Shown here piece after piece: positions 28,270-39,155 of a stretch of 64,000 nt of DNA; the first letter of the stretch is position 1, and each line of letters starts with the position of its first letter. Below the pieces are notes generated by a model that saw only the letters and a list, made by a program, of their open reading frames with translations, was not told the DNA's origin and made no database searches. This DNA is from a bacterium. Lineage in GTDB: Bacteria > DRYD01. The position numbers and the translations under genes were made by a program. The DNA lies in the NCBI GenBank assembly GCA_030549815.1, contig JAUQQQ010000002.1, positions 111,232 to 175,231 on the forward strand, in the 5' to 3' direction.

Positions 28270-28468
28270 TTTTTATACGCGTTATTTAAAAAGTACGGAC
28301 AGAAAAAACTTTGAGTAAAGAAAACTTTCATTTTTCAAAACTATTATATATATCCAACAAAGCAATTTTATGAGCTACGGATAATTTCTATGTATTTTAA
28401 AAAGGAGGTTTTATTTCTTTGTCAAATAAAAATTATGGTTAGCTTTGCTAACTATTCTAAAATAATAG

Positions 28469-28493
28469 TTATCAAAGGCTAACTAATTGATAA
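28469..28493. promoter_or_regulatory. operator-like palindrome TTATCAA-N11-TTGATAA immediately upstream of the protoglobin RBS
   Basis: A perfect 7 bp inverted repeat ends 8 nt before AAGGAGG and the ATG at 28510. A second small hairpin, GTTAGC-TTT-GCTAAC, lies at about 28437-28452. Confidence 0.3.
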
Positions 28494-28509
28494 AAAGGAG
28501 GTGTTAAAA

Positions 28510-28974
28510 ATGCACGGATACGATTACGGAAAAGTCCCAAATGCACCTTATACAACTCAAGATATCGAATTACTTAAAAAGACACTCTTATTTACAGATG
28601 AAGATATTAAATACCTAAAATTAGCTGGCCAAGTATTAGAAGACCAAATAGATGATGTTCTTAATCTATGGTATGGATATGTAGGATCTAATCCACACTT
28701 AGTTTATTACTTTACAGATAAAAACACAGGAGAACCTATACAAAAATACTTAGAAAACGTAAGATTAAGATTTGGACAGTAGATAGTAGATCACATACCT
28801 TTACGACATCTTATCGCCTTTATATTTCCAATAACTTTTACAATAAAATCATTTCTTTCTAAGAAAGGCCATTCTCAAGAAGAAGTAGAAAAAATGTATA
28901 ATGCATGGTTTAAAGCAATTGTCCTAACCGTTGTCTTATGGAGTTATCCTTACACAAAAGAAGGAGAATGGTAG
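28510..28974 (+). pseudogene. protoglobin-like (globin-coupled-sensor-type globin) gene disrupted by in-frame internal deletion plus TAG stop
   Basis: The N-terminal segment GYDYGKV..LLFTDEDIKYLKLAGQVLEDQIDDVLNLWYGYVGSNPHLVYYFTDKNTGEPIQKYLENVRLRFGQ is followed by TAG at 28780. The same frame then continues as IPLRHLIAFIFPITFTIKSFLSKKGHSQEEVEKMYNAWFKAIVLTVVLWSYPYTKEGEW. Both blocks align to archaeal protoglobin, but about 38 residues (the predicted proximal-His region) are missing. Confidence 0.6.
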
Positions 28975-29006: not shown

Positions 29007-30158
29007 TTGATAGAAAAATTTTTCAATGAAGGGAACACCCACATAAAAAAAGAGAATCCTGTAGAAGAATCCTTTTTGAATAAAAAGATAATTTTTTCAG
29101 AATATCCACTTCTTATATATTGGGAATTAACAAGAGCATGCGATTTAGTTTGTAAACATTGCCGTGCAAATTCAATAAAAAATCCTGAACAAAATGAGTT
29201 AAATACCAACCAAATATTCAAAATAATAGACGATATAAGGGAAAACTTTTCGAAAAATACAACGATTGTATTTACAGGTGGAGACCCATTGAAAAGAAAT
29301 GATCTATTTGAAATTATAGATTACACAAGAAAAAAAGGAGTAAGGTTTGCATTGGCACCATCAGCAACCAATCTTATAACATACAAAATTATTGAAAAAC
29401 TTAAAGAATCCGGTGTAGAATCAATATCTTTAAGTTTAGACTCTCATAATCCAGATATACATGATAAAATTAGAGGAGTAGAAAAAACTTTCCAAAGAAC
29501 AATAGAATTAGCAAATATCATAAATAGTCTAAACATAAACCTTCAAATTAATACCTTAATCTACAAAGAAAATTATAATGATTTAGAAAGAATGTATGAA
29601 TTCTTAGAGAAAAACATAAAACCCCATAGATGGAGTTTATTTTTATTGATCAAGACAGGAAGAGGAACAGAATTAGAAGAGCCAACAGCAAGCGAAGTAG
29701 AAAAATTTAATAATAGACTTTACAAAATACACAAAAATTCTTCTTTTCTAATAAAAACAACAGAATTACATCACTACCGCAGAACATTTATAAAGAGAAT
29801 GATTAATGAGGGTAAAAGTATAGAGGAGATCAAAAAAACAAGTATTTACAGGGGAGCAGGAATAAGAGATGGAAATGGAATAATATTCATCTCATCCAAA
29901 GGATTTGTATACCCATCTGGTTTTCTTCCCTTAATCGTTGGTAATTTGAAAAAAAATATATTATCAGATATTTATAAAAACAGTTCTTTGCTAAAAAAAT
30001 TAAGAGACCCTGATAATTTTGAAGGTAAATGTGGATATTGCGAATTTAGGTATATTTGCGGGGGTTCAAGAGCAAGAGCATTTGCTAAAACCAAAAATCC
30101 TTTTTCTTCTGAACCACTCTGTTTATATAAACCACAAGTTTTTAACAAATTTTATTAA
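29007..30158 (+). CDS. radical SAM / SPASM-domain protein, AhbC/AhbD/NirJ-like
   Basis: WELTRACDLVCKHCRA (CxxxCxxC), TGGDPLKRNDLF, and the C-terminal CGYCEFRYICGGSRA SPASM cysteines. The start is probably the TTG at 29007, 8 nt after GGGGGAGG, although the ORF track starts it at 28989. Confidence 0.75.
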   Translation: MIEKFFNEGNTHIKKENPVEESFLNKKIIFSEYPLLIYWELTRACDLVCKHCRANSIKNPEQNELNTNQIFKIIDDIRENFSKNTTIVFTGGDPLKRNDLFEIIDYTRKKGVRFALAPSATNLITYKIIEKLKESGVESISLSLDSHNPDIHDKIRGVEKTFQRTIELANIINSLNINLQINTLIYKENYNDLERMYEFLEKNIKPHRWSLFLLIKTGRGTELEEPTASEVEKFNNRLYKIHKNSSFLIKTTELHHYRRTFIKRMINEGKSIEEIKKTSIYRGAGIRDGNGIIFISSKGFVYPSGFLPLIVGNLKKNILSDIYKNSSLLKKLRDPDNFEGKCGYCEFRYICGGSRARAFAKTKNPFSSEPLCLYKPQVFNKFY

Positions 30159-30233
30159 AATAAAAAACACAAAATAAAAAAAGAAGAAAACTGTTATTTG
30201 ACATGTTAAATTTTTTTTGCTTTGTAGATTAGA

Positions 30234-32150
30234 CTACTTTATAGAAGCGTTTAATTGTCCTAAGGCAATCCCACTATCGTTAGGTGGAATATTTTTGTGA
30301 AAATAAATCTTAAAAACTCTAAATTTTTCTAATATTGAATAGCAAAGGATTTTATTTTGGAAAACTCCTCCAGAAAATCCGACAGTATCAATCCCATAAT
30401 TATCCATTATATTTTTCGCAATTTCATACATTGCTTGTGTAATAGTATTATGGAATTTTCTTGCTAAATCATTATAATTCTCATAATCCCTTTTTTCAAG
30501 GATATACTTAAAGGTTTCCAAGAAATCAACAATCAGCATATCATTTTCTTTATTAATACTGAATGGTAGGTAAGAATTTTCGCTTGATTTCAACGCCAAA
30601 TTTTCTAATTCTATTGCTGCTTGACCAGAAAACATTATTTTTTGATTTTCTCTTATTTTTAGCAGAACAGCAGCAATATCAAAAAGCCTTCCTACCGACG
30701 ATGTATAATAAACATTCTCATCTTTTTCTATCTGCTTTATTACTATCTGTTTTTGGAAGTTATTAATTTCATTAAATAAGTTCAACTTTTGTGGTAAAAA
30801 TTTAGCAACAAAAGAAAGTGCTATAAACACAGGATTCTCGATAGCAGAGTCACCCGCAACTATAGGGATATACCTAAAATGTGCTACCCTGTATAAATTA
30901 AAAATATCCCCAACAAAAACTTCTCCCCCCCAAATTTTTCCATCTTCCCCATAACCAGTACCATCAAAAGAAAACCCTATTAACTTGTCCTTGATATTCC
31001 TGTCAATTATTAAAGAATATATATGAGCCTTATGATGTTGCACCTTCCTTAATTCAACCCCTATATTATAAGATAAATCCTCAGCAAAAGTAGTAGATAA
31101 ATAATAAGGATGTAAATCGCAAACTACCATTTTTGGATTCAAATCATATAAATCGATCAATTTATGAACCATTTTCTGATAATTATCAAAAACATGTTGG
31201 CTAACAAGATGACCTAACCTTGTAGATAAGAATATTTTATTTTCTTTAACTAAACAAATAGAACTTTCCAATTCTGGCCCTAAACAAATACTATCAAAAA
31301 ATTCATAATCCGTTTTAATAAATTTTCCAACTCTTCCAATTCCTCTCCTAATACATAAACCCAGCTCATTATAAACAATAGAAAAATCCTGAATGTTATT
31401 GATTTTTAAATTATTATAAACAATGTATTTTACTTTATCATAAAATTTTTCTAAAACTTCTTCATCATCTATATAAGGGCTTTCTGAAGAAATATTTAAA
31501 CTACTAAATACCAAGGGTTTATTAAAAAAATTAAAAATCAAAACAAAAAAAGGATCATTAGCAATCCATATTCCGAAATAATCGTTACTTGAAATCTTGG
31601 AAGAAAATTTAGAATTTAAAGCTCTGATGATTTTTATATCAAGAGAATTATCATCGATCTTTTCCTCTGTTGTAATATATTCCTTCAACATTTCAAGAGA
31701 GGAAAAAGCTATAGGTAAAGGTTTTTGAGTTCTCTTTATACTTCTTAATTTTTCAATAGCTGATTCATTAGTTGCATCACAAATTAGATAATAAATATTA
31801 GAAGTCTTTAAAGCAATAATCTCTCCTTTACTTAAGATCATAGAAATCTCTTTGAACAGCAAGTAGTAATCTTCGAAATATTGGTTGTTCAAATATATCT
31901 TTGGACCACATTTAGAACAACATATAAAACTATACTTAAATCTTCTTGATTTAACATCATCATATTCTTTTTTACATTCATCACAAATATCAAAATACAA
32001 TTCTTTTTTTGAAAATATTGAAAAAAAAGAACCGCAATTATTACAACCACTAAAAGGATAAAAATATCTCCTACTATTTGGGTCCAAAATTTCATTCCTA
32101 CATTCCTGACAAATAGGTTTATCATTGTTTTCTTTAACTATTTCAATCAT
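30234..32150 (-). CDS. hypF: carbamoyltransferase HypF lacking the N-terminal acylphosphatase domain
   Basis: Two CxxC-x18-CxxC zinc fingers at the N-terminus, a YrdC-like block and a Kae1/HypF C-terminal domain. 638 aa. Confidence 0.85.
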   Translation of the reverse strand: MIEIVKENNDKPICQECRNEILDPNSRRYFYPFSGCNNCGSFFSIFSKKELYFDICDECKKEYDDVKSRRFKYSFICCSKCGPKIYLNNQYFEDYYLLFKEISMILSKGEIIALKTSNIYYLICDATNESAIEKLRSIKRTQKPLPIAFSSLEMLKEYITTEEKIDDNSLDIKIIRALNSKFSSKISSNDYFGIWIANDPFFVLIFNFFNKPLVFSSLNISSESPYIDDEEVLEKFYDKVKYIVYNNLKINNIQDFSIVYNELGLCIRRGIGRVGKFIKTDYEFFDSICLGPELESSICLVKENKIFLSTRLGHLVSQHVFDNYQKMVHKLIDLYDLNPKMVVCDLHPYYLSTTFAEDLSYNIGVELRKVQHHKAHIYSLIIDRNIKDKLIGFSFDGTGYGEDGKIWGGEVFVGDIFNLYRVAHFRYIPIVAGDSAIENPVFIALSFVAKFLPQKLNLFNEINNFQKQIVIKQIEKDENVYYTSSVGRLFDIAAVLLKIRENQKIMFSGQAAIELENLALKSSENSYLPFSINKENDMLIVDFLETFKYILEKRDYENYNDLARKFHNTITQAMYEIAKNIMDNYGIDTVGFSGGVFQNKILCYSILEKFRVFKIYFHKNIPPNDSGIALGQLNASIK

Positions 32151-32151
32151 G

Positions 32152-34023
32152 TCAGGATACCTCCTGAAAATTTTTTGAAAATTCTCGAGGGAAATTTTTC
32201 ATTGCAGTAATCAAAGGAATAGGAGCAGCTTGTCCCAATCCACATAAACTTGCATTCATAACAGTCCTAATTATTTCATCTATTTTTCTATCTAAATTTT
32301 TACCGTTAAGGAAATCATTCAGTTTTTCAGTTAATTTAACTGTGCCAACTCTACACGGGATACATTGACCACAACTCTCATCAGCAAAAAACTGCATTAA
32401 ATCCCTTACTAACTCTGGAATACTCATGCTATTGGGAATAGCAAAAATTGCTCCTGATCCTAACATAGCCCCTTCCCTCTGTATATCCTCATATGTATAA
32501 TCCAAATCAAGAGAAGAATTTGTTAATATCCCTCCTGACGGACCACCTATTAACAATCCTTTATTAGGTTCTCTAAAACCAAATCCAATTTCCTCTATTA
32601 TTTTTCTAACTTTTATCCCATATGGAACTTCGTTAACACAAGGATTATTAACATTTCCTGTTAACGAAATCATCTTCGTTCCAATAGATTGTCCTTTACC
32701 GTATTCTTTAAACACTTCTGGTCCGTAACTAACAGCACATGCTAAAGCAGCTAATGTTTCAACGTTATTTATTAAAGTAGGTTTTCCAAAAAGTCCTTGC
32801 TGGAAAGGGAAAGGTGGTCTATTTCTGGGCATAGCCTTCTTACCCTCTATTACTTCCAACATTGCAGTTTCTTCACCTGCAATATAAGCACTTGGCGACC
32901 TTCTTATTTCTATGTCAAAATCATTACTTACAAAATTAAAAAATCCCATATCCTTTGCTTGTTTTATAACATTTTTCAACCTCTCTATAGCTTCCTTAGC
33001 TTTGTAATTAACGAAGATATATCCTTTTGTTGCCCCCACAACATAAGCAGCAATAATTATTCCTTCAATAATAATGAAAGGATTAGATTCAGCAAGGATT
33101 ACATTACAGTAAGAAGCAACTTCACCCTCTTCCAGATTAGCAACTACAAATTTTGGATTTTCTTTCTGCTGCATTACTCCTTGCAATTTTATATGCAATG
33201 GGAAAGCGGCTCCTCCCCTACCCCTTATACCTGCCTCTTTTGCAATCTCTATAATTCTTTCCTTTCCTAATTCCACCGCCTTTTTTATACCTTCAAAACC
33301 ACCAATTTTAATATAACTGTCAATATTAAAAGGATCAACAAAATCATTGTATTTCATTATAATTTTGCCTTTTCTATCAAAATTTAAGAAATTCTCTCTA
33401 TTTATAATCGTAGGATCTTGTTTAATTTTATTAAGAAAAGTTGGTGATAGCTGAAAAACTTTGTTATCAATAATTCCTACAGGAGCAAAACCACAAAATC
33501 CTAAACAACCACAGTTCTCAACATCAAATCCTGATAAATCTACATCCTTATGTAAGCAATTACCAGCAACACATCTCCTTATCTTTATCTTCCCATTAAC
33601 ATTTGAGTTAAAAGATATGTTCCTTTCTAAATTTTTTACATCCGGATTTTTAATATTAATGATATATTCCATTTTTTGATTAAGAATAAAGCGATCTTTA
33701 AATTTAACTACCGGAGCTTGAGCACATTTCTTGAAACAATAAGATCTTCTTACATCAAACCCCTGTTTTTGTAGTTCTTCATATAACTTTCGAGAACCCT
33801 TTTCTAAACAAGATATTCCAAAACACACATAAACAGCATTTTTATTTTTTATTTCTGAAAACTCTTTATAAAAAGATATAATGGCCTTTATTTCATTTTT
33901 TACAATTTCCAATTCTTTTGACAAATTTTCTATATCTTTTTCTTCTATTCTTCCTTTTTCTTCCAAAATATCAAACAGTTTTTCTATGAGCAAAGATTTT
34001 TTTATTTGGTTCTCCTTTAACAT
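32152..34023 (-). CDS. NuoE-NuoF-like fused flavoprotein (NAD(P)-linked hydrogenase/diaphorase subunit, HndC/HoxF-like)
   Basis: An N-terminal thioredoxin-like 2Fe-2S motif (CFGISC..CFKKC), then RGRGGAAFP (FMN/NADH site) and CGQCIPCRVG (N3 4Fe-4S). Confidence 0.8.
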   Translation of the reverse strand: MLKENQIKKSLLIEKLFDILEEKGRIEEKDIENLSKELEIVKNEIKAIISFYKEFSEIKNKNAVYVCFGISCLEKGSRKLYEELQKQGFDVRRSYCFKKCAQAPVVKFKDRFILNQKMEYIINIKNPDVKNLERNISFNSNVNGKIKIRRCVAGNCLHKDVDLSGFDVENCGCLGFCGFAPVGIIDNKVFQLSPTFLNKIKQDPTIINRENFLNFDRKGKIIMKYNDFVDPFNIDSYIKIGGFEGIKKAVELGKERIIEIAKEAGIRGRGGAAFPLHIKLQGVMQQKENPKFVVANLEEGEVASYCNVILAESNPFIIIEGIIIAAYVVGATKGYIFVNYKAKEAIERLKNVIKQAKDMGFFNFVSNDFDIEIRRSPSAYIAGEETAMLEVIEGKKAMPRNRPPFPFQQGLFGKPTLINNVETLAALACAVSYGPEVFKEYGKGQSIGTKMISLTGNVNNPCVNEVPYGIKVRKIIEEIGFGFREPNKGLLIGGPSGGILTNSSLDLDYTYEDIQREGAMLGSGAIFAIPNSMSIPELVRDLMQFFADESCGQCIPCRVGTVKLTEKLNDFLNGKNLDRKIDEIIRTVMNASLCGLGQAAPIPLITAMKNFPREFSKNFQEVS

Positions 34024-35021
34024 ATTCTTGGTAATATATCTCCTTTCAAACTTTCTAATATTCTTCTGGTTCCTATTCTTGTAATGAGAAAAGTTTTCGG
34101 TTTTTCAAAGCTTTTTACTTTTCCTATAACTTTAGCATTTTTTCCTAATGGATGTTGATGAAGATACTCAATTATTTGCTGGGATTGGTTTTTGGAAGCG
34201 ACGATCACAGCTTTCCCTTCATTTGCAGCATATAGTGGGTCAATCCCCAATACTTCAGAAGCACTTATAACCCATTCTTTAACCGGTATTTCCTCTTCAT
34301 AAATTTCAATCTCAACTTTATATTTTTGGTTAATTTCATTGAGAACAGTAGCAACTCCACCCCTTGTTGCATCTCTAACAAACTTTATGCCATCAAATTT
34401 ATCAAGTAAAGGTAATATAAGGTTACTCAAGTTAGCCAAGTCTGATTGAACCTCATCATCAGTTTCTACTCCTAACCTTTCAAGCATAATATAAAGTCCA
34501 TGCTCTCCTATGGATCCAGTAACAATAATAACATCCTCTGGCTCTATTTTTCTATCTTTCCATTTTCTTTGTTTATCTATTATTCCTATACCCGATGTAT
34601 TGATAAAAACTTTATCTCCTTTATTTTTTTCAACAACCTTCGTGTCTCCTGTTATTATTTTTACATTGGCTTCCTGAGCTGCCTGCGAAATAGAATTGAG
34701 TATTCTTTTTAGATCTTTCATTTCGAATCCCTCTTCAAAAATAAAAGCAAGAGAGAGAAATAGTGGTTGAGCACCAACAACACAAAGATCATTAACCGTC
34801 CCAAAAACCGCCAACTTTCCTATATCCCCATTCTTAAAAAATATCGGATTAATAACATAAGAATCAGTAGTAAAAGCCAATGTACCAGAAATTTCAAATA
34901 TCCCCGAATCTAAAAGTTCATCAAGTATAGGATTAGAAAAATATCTCAAAAAATCTTTTTCTATTAAGTTCCGCATTGATTCTCCACCACTACCATGAGC
35001 CAACAAAATTAAATCACTCAT
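34017..35021 (-). CDS. hypE: [NiFe]-hydrogenase maturation factor HypE
   Basis: N-terminal LAHGSGG and the diagnostic C-terminal PRIC. 334 aa. Confidence 0.9.
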   Translation of the reverse strand: MSDLILLAHGSGGESMRNLIEKDFLRYFSNPILDELLDSGIFEISGTLAFTTDSYVINPIFFKNGDIGKLAVFGTVNDLCVVGAQPLFLSLAFIFEEGFEMKDLKRILNSISQAAQEANVKIITGDTKVVEKNKGDKVFINTSGIGIIDKQRKWKDRKIEPEDVIIVTGSIGEHGLYIMLERLGVETDDEVQSDLANLSNLILPLLDKFDGIKFVRDATRGGVATVLNEINQKYKVEIEIYEEEIPVKEWVISASEVLGIDPLYAANEGKAVIVASKNQSQQIIEYLHQHPLGKNAKVIGKVKSFEKPKTFLITRIGTRRILESLKGDILPRIC

Positions 35022-35164
35022 TCACACCACCACCTACTCAAAAAAATACAATAAACTAAAAACTTTACCTTCTTTTTTAATCTCAACAAAACAGTAAAAG
35101 GAATTAAATTTGTTCAGGAAAAATTATAATAATGAAGCAATAAAAAATAAATAGGAGGAAAATA

Positions 35165-36148: not shown

Positions 36149-38203
36149 GTGCAACAAATAAAAGAATTAGAAAAAATCAAAGAAATTATAATAAATCAAA
36201 CATCTAATTTAGGGAAAATTTTAACAGATTACATCTTTTCAAAGATATCAAAACAAGAAAATTTAACAGGATTAAAAGAAATATCCTTCGAATATTATCA
36301 ACTTATTTCAAATCAAGAGTTCTTATCGAAAGTTCATAAAAGATTCAACGATAACTACATAACTAAATTATTTTCAATAGAAATAATAGAAGGAGAAAGT
36401 ATTCAATCCTTAGTTTTTTCAATAAAACCAAACTATTCTATATTCGATGCAAAAAGCATATTAACTATTGGAGAATTCATACAATCGTTTGTCAATTACA
36501 AAAAATTATTTCTCAACTTTATTTCTGAAAACAACCTACCTTATAAAAACATAAGGAATTTTGTTTCATCAACCTCCAATTTCAAAGATCTTCTGAACAC
36601 GATATTTTACTTTATTGATAGTAAAGGAAACATAAGGGACGACGCTACAGTAGAATTAAAAAAAATAAGACAAGAAATATCAAACTTGATTAAATATATA
36701 CCAAACAAACTTCATGAATTTATTAGAGAAAATAACCAATATTTAGTTTCTAACGAAGTAAGTTATAGGAATGGAAGGTATGTTATTTTACTAAATTCTC
36801 AATATGTAAGCAATTTTGAAGGAATCGTCCAGGATTACTCATGGACCCATAAGACCGCATTCTTTGAACCACACTTCATAATTAATCTCAATAATAAACT
36901 AACTATATTACAAAACATGGAAAATATTGAAATACAGAAAATTTTATCTCATTTATTTCAAAAAATAGTGGAAAACATAGAAAATATAGGAACATTAATA
37001 AAGGTTTGCTCATTCTTGGAATTTTTTAACAGTTATTTTTCTTTATCTTCTTACTTTTGCTTAGCAGAGGTAAATCAAGAAAGAAAAGTTGAAATAAAAA
37101 ACTTGATCAATCCATTAATAAAGGAATGTGTACCGATTGATATAGAATTTAATGAAGGTTTAATGATAGTGGGGCCCAATAGTGGAGGAAAAAGTGCAGC
37201 ACTAAAATCCACATTTTTAGCATTAATGTTTTCTGCGTGTGGATTACCAATCTTTGCTACAAAAGCCTCATTACCATTTAATAGCAATACAGAACGAATA
37301 AAAGTTTTTTACGATATTCCTGACCCTCAAGATATCACTTTAAACATAAGCACATTTTCAGGACACGTCAAATACTGGAAATACATAATAGAAAATTTAA
37401 ATAAGGATAATTTGGGAAAAACAAAGATTTTTATAATAATGGATGAGCCAGCTTCAGGTACTGAACCAATAGAAGCAAGCACAATAACAATTGCTATAAT
37501 AGAATACTTCTTATCAAAACAAGCATTCGTTATTTTCACAACTCACTACGACTACGTAAAAAATTATTTTTATAAAAAAATAACTACAGCCTCAGTGGAT
37601 TATGATTTTCAAACCAATCATCCCAAATACAAACTCGTCTATAATACCCTACTTCCATCATTACCCACTAACTTACTTTCTTCATTACCAGACTCCATAC
37701 TAACAAGAATAAATGAATTAAAAAACTATTTTCTATCCAACGAATATCAACAAAAATTAAAAGAAATTTACTTAGAAATAAACTCAATAAAACAAGATAT
37801 TCAAGAAAAACAAAAAATAATAGAACAAAAAATTAGAGAAATAGAAGAAGAAAAATTCACGATTAAACAGAAACTTAAAAACGAGCTTATACATAAATTA
37901 TACAATGAATACTCACAAAAAATAGAGAAAATTATCCAAGAATGGGAAAAAGAATTAATCAAAGAAAAAAACAAAGGTATAGATAAATTAGAAAAAAAAT
38001 TGAAATCAATAAAAAATTTTGATCTTATAGATTACTTATCAATGATTGAAACAGAACAAGAAAAAGAAGATATCAAAATAGGAGATGTTGTAGAAATTAA
38101 ATTCCTGCAAGAAAAAGGAATCGTAAAAGAAATCAAAGGAGACAAAATAGTTGTCGAAATAAAAAACAAAAATTTTACTTTGTCAAAAAAAGATATAAAG
38201 TAA
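36149..38203 (+). CDS. MutS2-family protein lacking the C-terminal Smr domain
   Basis: MutS domain V with Walker A GPNSGGKSA and IIMDEPASGTEP. The C-terminal KOW-like IGDVVEIKF..GIVKEIKGDKIVVEI is followed directly by the stop. 684 aa, GTG start. Confidence 0.7.
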   Translation: MQQIKELEKIKEIIINQTSNLGKILTDYIFSKISKQENLTGLKEISFEYYQLISNQEFLSKVHKRFNDNYITKLFSIEIIEGESIQSLVFSIKPNYSIFDAKSILTIGEFIQSFVNYKKLFLNFISENNLPYKNIRNFVSSTSNFKDLLNTIFYFIDSKGNIRDDATVELKKIRQEISNLIKYIPNKLHEFIRENNQYLVSNEVSYRNGRYVILLNSQYVSNFEGIVQDYSWTHKTAFFEPHFIINLNNKLTILQNMENIEIQKILSHLFQKIVENIENIGTLIKVCSFLEFFNSYFSLSSYFCLAEVNQERKVEIKNLINPLIKECVPIDIEFNEGLMIVGPNSGGKSAALKSTFLALMFSACGLPIFATKASLPFNSNTERIKVFYDIPDPQDITLNISTFSGHVKYWKYIIENLNKDNLGKTKIFIIMDEPASGTEPIEASTITIAIIEYFLSKQAFVIFTTHYDYVKNYFYKKITTASVDYDFQTNHPKYKLVYNTLLPSLPTNLLSSLPDSILTRINELKNYFLSNEYQQKLKEIYLEINSIKQDIQEKQKIIEQKIREIEEEKFTIKQKLKNELIHKLYNEYSQKIEKIIQEWEKELIKEKNKGIDKLEKKLKSIKNFDLIDYLSMIETEQEKEDIKIGDVVEIKFLQEKGIVKEIKGDKIVVEIKNKNFTLSKKDIK

Positions 38204-38224: not shown

Positions 38225-38575
38225 ATGGGAATAAAATTATCAGAGATATTAGGTAGTCTAAGCCAAGCCTTGGATATGACAGAAGGACAATTAAGAGGAC
38301 ATTCAAAAAGAACAGCATACATAGCATTAAAAATAGCAAGAGAATTATCATTGTCAGATTTCTGGGAATCTTCCAAATTCGCATTAAAATTTGTAAAAAA
38401 GTCTAACTTCCTACAAAAGGTATTTCATCTATACAAGGAAACAGGGCTATCTCCAAAAATAATGGATGATTTGACATTAACAAGATGTACTAATGGTTCA
38501 AAAATAGCAACATATATTGGCTTTAGTAGTGAAGTTGCCAAAGCTATCGAATGCTTAGATGAGCACTGGGAATAG
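38225..38575 (+). CDS. degenerate HD-GYP-like N-terminal fragment (HD motif lost)
   Basis: LSQALDMTEGQLRGHSKRTAYIALKIAREL resembles the HD-GYP entry segment, but no HD dipeptide follows. This may be a decayed tandem duplicate of the next gene. Confidence 0.3.
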   Translation: MGIKLSEILGSLSQALDMTEGQLRGHSKRTAYIALKIARELSLSDFWESSKFALKFVKKSNFLQKVFHLYKETGLSPKIMDDLTLTRCTNGSKIATYIGFSSEVAKAIECLDEHWE

Positions 38576-38636
38576 AATTAGTAAATATTGCTTTCAAATT
38601 TAAGGACAATAAGGAATTCTGGGAAATATACAAAAA

Positions 38637-39155
38637 ATGCTAAACAATCCAGCATTAAACATAAGTTTGGGAATAGAAAATATTGAAGAAAAATTAACTG
38701 TAGATGATATAGATAGAATATGCCAAGCTTTTGCAATGATAATCGACGCCAAAAGTAATTACACTTATGAACATTCATCAAGGGTAGCCAAATATTCAGT
38801 AGCAATTTCTAAAAAAATTGGATTTGATGAAGAAAAGATAAAATTCATATACAGAGCAGGACTTTTACATGATATTGGAAAATTAGGAATACCATCATCT
38901 ATCATAGATAAACCTGGCAAATTAACCAATGAACAAAAGCTCAACGGCAAAGGATATCATCGCAAATTAAAAGGTCAAGAAATAAACGTAGAGTCAAGAA
39001 TTCTGGCAGTAGCAGATGTGTTTGATGCACTTCACAGTGAAAGACCATACCGCCCAGCAATGCCCATTGAAAAAGTCTTTAAAATAATGCAAGAAGAAAT
39101 GAAAGAAGAACTTGATCAAAACATAGTCCTTACACTAAAAGAAATTATCCAATGA
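38637..39155 (+). CDS. HD-GYP-like HD-domain protein with shortened, divergent GYP region
   Basis: YEHSSRVAKYSVAISKKIG..AGLLHDIGKLGIPSSIIDKPGKLT, then directly KGYHRKLKGQEI (GYP read as GYH), then AVADVFDALHSERPYRPA. The usual block carrying the HHE residues appears to be absent. Confidence 0.55.
   Translation: MLNNPALNISLGIENIEEKLTVDDIDRICQAFAMIIDAKSNYTYEHSSRVAKYSVAISKKIGFDEEKIKFIYRAGLLHDIGKLGIPSSIIDKPGKLTNEQKLNGKGYHRKLKGQEINVESRILAVADVFDALHSERPYRPAMPIEKVFKIMQEEMKEELDQNIVLTLKEIIQ

Follow-up and report, generated by a model that had tools for sequence, protein, structure and literature searches.

Results and discussion

In an uncultured thermophile related to Candidatus Calescibacterium, the gene of a single-domain protoglobin is interrupted by an internal deletion and a premature stop codon; this is very probably a genuine and recent loss-of-function allele that segregates in natural populations of the organism. 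The main reading of the preliminary description, namely a protoglobin recently inactivated by an internal deletion together with a stop codon, is supported; I infer that the allele lacks function.

The interrupted protoglobin gene

The window, that is, the whole 64-kb stretch of DNA analysed here, carries the gene on its forward strand. The features needed for what follows are, in window coordinates:

28497..28501, + strand: Shine-Dalgarno sequence GGAGG, 8 nt 5' of the protoglobin ATG (from the sequence)
28510..28782, + strand: N-terminal protoglobin fragment, 90 codons and the premature TAG (PF11563 and PDB alignments)
28777..28794, + strand: deletion junction CAGTAGATAGTAGATCAC (alignment to intact alleles and k-mer breakdown)
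28783..28974, + strand: C-terminal protoglobin fragment, 63 codons and the original TAG (PF11563; G and H helices)
29007..30158, + strand: TIGR04053-family radical SAM/SPASM gene, intact (NCBIfam TIGR04053, 408 bits)

Translated in a single frame, positions 28510-28974 give 90 amino acids, a TAG (28780-28782), 63 amino acids and a second TAG (28972-28974), exactly as had been described: the first block ends at a TAG and the second continues in the same frame. The claim that both blocks match protoglobin also holds for each fragment taken alone, at a PF11563 gathering cut-off of 25 bits. The N-terminal fragment scores 46.3 bits (E 5.7e-12) over positions 3-60 of the 158-position profile and the C-terminal fragment 39.5 bits (E 7.2e-10) over positions 98-157, with profile positions 61-97 finding no match in either. 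When joined, the fragments align with the solved structures of ApPgb (7ute, 8eum) and MaPgb (2veb) at E 5e-55 to 1e-50, in two stretches (chain residues 7-97 and 133-195) from which the middle is absent; in ApPgb, chain residues 98-132 are left unmatched.

According to the PDB alignments, the N-terminal fragment spans the Z to E helices. It keeps the distal-site residues Trp54, Tyr55 and Phe88, equivalent to Trp60(B9), Tyr61(B10) and Phe93(E11), which line the distal site of MaPgb (PMC3680402). Inspection of the sequence revealed no start codon or ribosome-binding site for the C-terminal fragment itself. The window allele, its reading frame broken by an in-frame TAG after codon 90 of 190, has neither a complete globin domain (about 190-195 residues, with contiguous helices Z and A to H) nor the proximal haem ligand His F8.

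TAG closes 5 of the 45 long open frames in the window, and it is therefore an ordinary stop codon here. Its use as a sense codon is ruled out by this count and by the intact allele, which has TGG (Trp) at the same place; a read-through product would in any case still be without the proximal His.

The intact allele and the segment that was lost

A protein search retrieved an intact allele of 190 residues, P0121 (a member of the P0001 cluster), which consists of both window fragments plus the 38 residues WIRDLTRAEYDQNWINYQYEIAIRHHKNKKNKTDDVNS. The N-terminal fragment is identical to P0121 residues 1-90 and the C-terminal fragment, after the Ile of the junction, to residues 129-190. In the window, the 38 codons W91-S128 are replaced by TAG-ATA (stop plus Ile), so that the net loss with respect to P0121 is 36 codons, or 108 nt.

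P0121 has the complete globin domain. Its residues 2-190 align over their full length with MaPgb and ApPgb (E 5e-76 to 1e-73), and it keeps Trp(B9), Tyr(B10), Phe(E11) and an RHH motif with the proximal His(F8). The alignment with MaPgb (2veb) runs end to end, with an offset of +5 in the lost region, and places His115 of P0121 on His120; the proximal haem ligand of MaPgb is His(120)F8 (PMC3680402). His115 lies inside the deleted stretch W91-S128, and the window allele is without the region from about E14 to just before helix G, all of helix F included. As the haem ligand is absent, the allele is expected to be haem-negative, and it would not be expected to give a haem-binding globin even if the stop codon were read through.

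That some 38 residues including the proximal His were missing had been proposed by comparison with characterised protoglobins, and the figure proves exact against P0121 (W91-S128, His115). The estimate of a missing segment of 110-120 bp agrees with the deleted stretch of 115 nt, while the net loss of 108 nt comes close to it and falls just outside. Neither the missing 108-115 nt nor a second protoglobin copy was found within the 64-kb window. A weak 38-residue match at 33518-33631, considered as the displaced segment, lies inside the NuoF-like gene and was taken as a chance match.

Anatomy of the junction

At the junction, AGTAGAT stands in two tandem copies (28778-28784 and 28785-28791), with the TAG at 28780-28782. 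The intact allele reads TTTGGACA followed by ATGGATAAGAGATCTAAC at the left breakpoint and GTTAATTCA followed by GTAGATCACATACC at the right one; the window allele reads TTTGGACAGTAGATAGTAGATCACATACC. Split into exact k-mers, the junction consists of the left flank TTTGGACA as far as CA, then the right-flank stretch CAGTAGAT, and then the right flank again, beginning with AGTAGATCAC. The lesion is thus a 115-nt deletion at a 2-nt CA microhomology combined with a 7-nt tandem duplication. The TAG arises because the first right-flank copy is read one base out of register. Since the 7-nt duplication restores the frame, the in-frame state is a coincidence of lengths and does not point to function.

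The junction motif occurs only once in the window. At the endpoints in the intact allele there is, beyond the CA microhomology, no direct or inverted repeat, no recombinase-type site and no mobile-element signature; neither strand contains another template for the junction within 600-800 nt. The lesion may go back to a single complex event in which the 115 nt between two CA dinucleotides were lost and 7 nt of the right flank were duplicated in tandem, presumably through microhomology-mediated joining or else through replication slippage accompanied by a short templated duplication. Translation that begins at the normal start would then stop after 90 residues.

Intact and deleted alleles in three lineages

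P0121 is present on 17 public contigs, which come from many runs; on each of them it is flanked by a TPR-repeat gene and a radical SAM gene, the same as in the window, so that close relatives have an intact orthologue at this locus. Compared with the window, the contigs have 0 mismatches over about 3 kb, made up of the TPR gene (1041 nt), both protoglobin parts and 1426 nt downstream. L007, the one locus given by a 32-nt pattern search of JGI metagenomes, carries the intact allele and is 99.8% identical to the window over 12 kb. The window strain is nearly clonal with strains that carry the intact gene, and the deletion is therefore young on this background, referred to as lineage A. The lesion had been called a fresh-looking pseudogene, and the absence of mismatches to the intact-allele strains over the ~3 kb of flanks bears this out. 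Comparison of the same locus in related DNA, proposed at the time as a check, finds the TAG and the deletion again in three contigs (L001-L003) and an intact gene on the P0121 contigs.

Tengchong in China is the source of runs SRR27730012-50, metagenomes of hot springs and of enrichments (PMC11604079); several of them contain the intact allele and one (SRR27730028) the deleted allele. The remaining deleted contigs form another lineage, B, sampled at a spring of the Kirishima region in Japan (PMC10762115). Lineage B diverges from the window by about 1.5% overall and by 4.6% in the TPR gene, and its protoglobin Shine-Dalgarno sequence is GGAAG, weakened from GGAGG. An intact allele was not found in lineage B. 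In lineage C (L006, about 93% identical) the gene is intact, with 198 residues as called.

In the N-terminal part, lineages A and B differ at four positions, all of them synonymous. In the C-terminal part, the intact lineage-A protein is separated from lineage B by four non-synonymous and no synonymous changes, and three further non-synonymous changes (P>L, S>P and T>N) are specific to lineage B, where the C-terminal fragment is untranslated. The SNPs that distinguish A from B nearest to the junction are at 28623 on the left (156 nt away) and at 28799, 28807 and 28816 on the right (7-24 nt away).

Over positions 28795-28974 as a whole, the comparison of A (intact alleles included) with B yields seven non-synonymous and 0 synonymous changes. 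Tyr136His (window 28807), one of the four changes of the intact lineage-A protein, lies at a nearly invariant position, at least 90% conserved among 17 protoglobins. The non-synonymous changes of the C-terminal part may be a sign that selection on the intact gene has been relaxed or has changed.

The intergenic region upstream of the gene differs as well. It is about 250 nt longer in lineage B than in the window, and around window positions 28270-28400 lineage A is shorter by that amount than both B (L001:5512-6001) and C (L006:5570-6001), with separate losses of 112, 25 and 79-114 nt. Within the lost part, which begins and ends with TTAATTCCATT, a motif like AAATTAACTGTCGTT occurs two or three times and may serve as a binding site of a regulator. 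What remains in the window (28400-28482) includes a second Shine-Dalgarno-like sequence, AAGGAGG, 93 nt 5' of that of the protoglobin gene and absent in lineage B, followed by a mini-ORF of 7 codons (TTG...TAG); just 5' of the gene stands a hairpin, CTTTGCTAACTATT / AATAGTTATCAAAG, with 14-nt arms and a 7-nt loop. Together, the upstream Shine-Dalgarno sequence, the mini-ORF and the hairpin could form a leader or an attenuator.

The host and the spread of protoglobins

The window has a GC content of 29%. The EF-G encoded there shares 79% identity with its Candidatus Calescibacterium counterpart and 66% or less with those of the next phyla. The protoglobin, at 78-79% identity to its counterparts in Candidatus Calescibacterium SKYB25 and a related MAG, shows the same divergence as EF-G and hence looks vertically inherited in this clade. 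Protoglobins had been thought uncommon in bacteria of this kind. This view does not agree with their presence in Candidatus Calescibacterium, nor with the protoglobin loci of many hot-spring bacterial MAGs, among them MAGs of Bacteroidota, Chloroflexota, Acidobacteriota, Armatimonadota and Bipolaricaulota.

Neighbouring genes

The radical SAM gene starts 32 nt 3' of the protoglobin stop codon. It is undamaged in the deletion strain, with 0 mismatches to the intact-allele strains, and its product passes the NCBIfam cut-off of TIGR04053 (408 against 395 bits). The next-best match and closest characterised relative is AhbD, the haem b synthase; the score of 289 bits lies below the AhbD cut-off of 500 bits, and the gene product is therefore not AhbD itself. 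The pairing of a protoglobin gene with a radical SAM gene recurs on one related contig of 4934 nt (P0006 and P0129). As a general arrangement it is ruled out, since a close radical SAM homologue stands beside the protoglobin at 0 of 80 other loci. From gene order and similarity, a haem-related functional link between the globin and a haem-synthase-like enzyme would be possible but weak.

Next, on the other strand, come genes for HypF, a NuoF-like protein and a HypE-like protein. This block of about 4.9 kb (window 30134-35096, minus strand; the NuoF-like protein is a flavoprotein) lies between the radical SAM and acyltransferase genes in lineages A and B; lineage C has about 260 nt (L006:7757-8018) in its place. 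Further along, a MutS-domain-V gene is called with 684 residues in the window (36149-38203) and in lineage C, and with 534 in lineage B (L106:17575-19179). The DNA alignment of B with the window has three gaps in this gene, which may be frameshifted or have a different start in lineage B.

An older pseudogene nearby

A gene of HD/HD-GYP type is a single ORF of 440 residues in lineage C (L006:11154-12476). In the window (38225-39155) it has been split into ORFs of 116 and 172 residues (38225-38575 and 38637-39155) by losses of 138, about 154, 1 and 99 nt with respect to lineage C, the 99-nt loss taking out the HHE part of the metal-binding motif. The eroded state is common to all lineage-A strains, those with an intact protoglobin included, and in L096, L097, L099 and L101 the gene is called with this split as well; no record matched the 172-residue fragment exactly. 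Lineage B (L106:19201-19938) has the first deletion in common with the window, as well as the left edge of the second, and another 530 nt are missing from it.

All indels of at least 25 nt that separate the window from lineages B and C lie in the region upstream of the protoglobin gene, in the protoglobin gene itself or in the HD gene, and every one of them is a loss in the window. The HD/HD-GYP-type gene is a pseudogene older than the protoglobin lesion. Together with the non-synonymous changes in the C-terminal part of the intact lineage-A protein, the pattern suggests that selection on dispensable sensing genes is relaxed and that deletions are eroding them. The latest step in this appears to be the protoglobin deletion, which is still polymorphic.

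Reality and origin of the lesion

The alternative that the lesion is a sequencing or assembly artefact, the genome really having an intact gene of 190 residues, had been left standing by the preliminary description; it is now extremely improbable. The window is metagenome-derived, which speaks for an artefact, and so might a contig from SRR28200751 in Logan (L004). This is 100% identical to the window for 1003 nt and ends exactly at the deletion site (~28780), two bases into an intact-type CAAT; the end may be a graph branch, with both alleles coexisting in that sample. Against this, other assemblers working independently on other data arrived at the identical junction, in three further contigs and two further read sets: L001 (ENA ERZ1669417, a SPAdes-style NODE contig), L002 (Logan DRR163687) and L003 (Logan SRR27730028). 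The first two are 100% identical over 2830 nt and probably derive from one sample; the 90-residue product (P0100) is recorded on four contigs, these three and L004, where it merely ends with the contig. Moreover, the k-mers of the junction are absent from the intact allele, and a de Bruijn assembler cannot invent them. A chimeric assembly of A-intact and B-deleted strains is ruled out by L003, a single contig in which the junction is physically tied to lineage-A SNPs (28799, 28807 and 28816), 7-37 nt away from it. Because of the independent assemblies, the junction-specific k-mers and the linkage in L003, artefact and chimera are excluded at the assembly level, and at that level the assemblies from DRR163687/ERZ1669417 and from SRR27730028 place the lesion in the DNA of the organism.

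How the same junction came to stand on two backgrounds is a separate matter. Most likely it arose once and was then passed on by homologous recombination within the species, an account that is favoured because the junction is complex and without any hotspot feature. With distinguishing SNPs so near to the junction, such an exchange would need either a very short conversion tract or a longer heteroduplex in which mismatch repair was patchy. The lesion could instead have arisen independently in A and B, through a deterministic hotspot, a programmed excision or a templated switch, and such a recurrent or directed deletion would act as an irreversible off-switch of the globin. This is quite improbable, even though the same junction occurs on both backgrounds with SNPs 28799, 28807 and 28816 close by and in samples from both China and Japan, and even though the net loss is in frame, as are the 138- and 99-nt deletions of the HD-GYP pseudogene. 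The endpoints share only the 2-nt microhomology, and a second step, the 7-nt duplication, would be needed each time; neither a flanking repeat, inverted repeat or recombinase-type site nor another template within 600-800 nt is present to direct it. In addition, the lost segment encodes conserved core residues and is not an insertion, and no other truncated protoglobin was found among the best 120 of 587 homologues. Taken more widely, the proposal that the null allele either recurs by a site-directed process or was spread by recombination across lineages and across Chinese and Japanese springs because loss of the globin is advantageous seems unlikely.

It is very unlikely that the truncated allele has gained a function, its 90-residue peptide serving as a haem-free regulator or as a dominant-negative partner of a dimeric globin. 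The start codon and Shine-Dalgarno sequence are intact in lineage A, and the differences between A and B, all synonymous in the N-terminal fragment (4/4) and all non-synonymous in the C-terminal one (7/7), speak for it. However, the synonymous changes probably predate the deletion, the Shine-Dalgarno sequence is weakened in lineage B, and the N-terminal fragment is without half of the globin fold, haem ligand included. Nor is there a family of protoglobin fragments of ~90 residues among the same best 120 of 587 homologues, P0100 being a cluster of one.

Significance and comparison with known systems

The lesion is an ordinary product of bacterial genome evolution and not a new kind of element; as one more bacterial pseudogene, it brings no conceptual change. 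The puzzling point is that one complex junction occurs on two haplotype backgrounds in two countries. If an advantageous null allele had indeed been spread by recombination, this would amount to a gene-specific sweep of a knockout; and recurrence or a sweep, if true, would provide a natural on/off contrast for the role of a bacterial protoglobin.

The sampled hot springs hold near-isogenic natural strains with and without a working protoglobin. The biological role of protoglobins is unknown (PMC3680402), and the distribution of the two alleles along oxygen, sulfide or temperature, or a comparison of transcriptomes, could hint at it. For annotation there is a warning: the 90-residue 'protoglobin' ORF of this MAG is a fragment. 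Together with the eroded HD-GYP gene, the allele points to an ongoing loss of sensing and signalling genes, by deletions of about 100-150 nt, in a little-known phylum.

MaPgb (2veb) and ApPgb (7ute, 8eum) resemble P0121 over the full length, and the window fragments are identical to P0121 outside the lesion. The window allele differs from MaPgb in that the equivalent of MaPgb residues 96-133 is absent and a stop stands at the junction, and from both structures in its host, a Calescibacterium-related bacterium and not an archaeon.

Bacterial pseudogenes form and erode under a deletional bias. The present case is alike in that a dispensable gene has been disabled by a mid-size deletion, with an older, eroded HD-GYP pseudogene nearby; it differs in that the allele is still polymorphic and in that its junction is shared by two backgrounds, from two countries.
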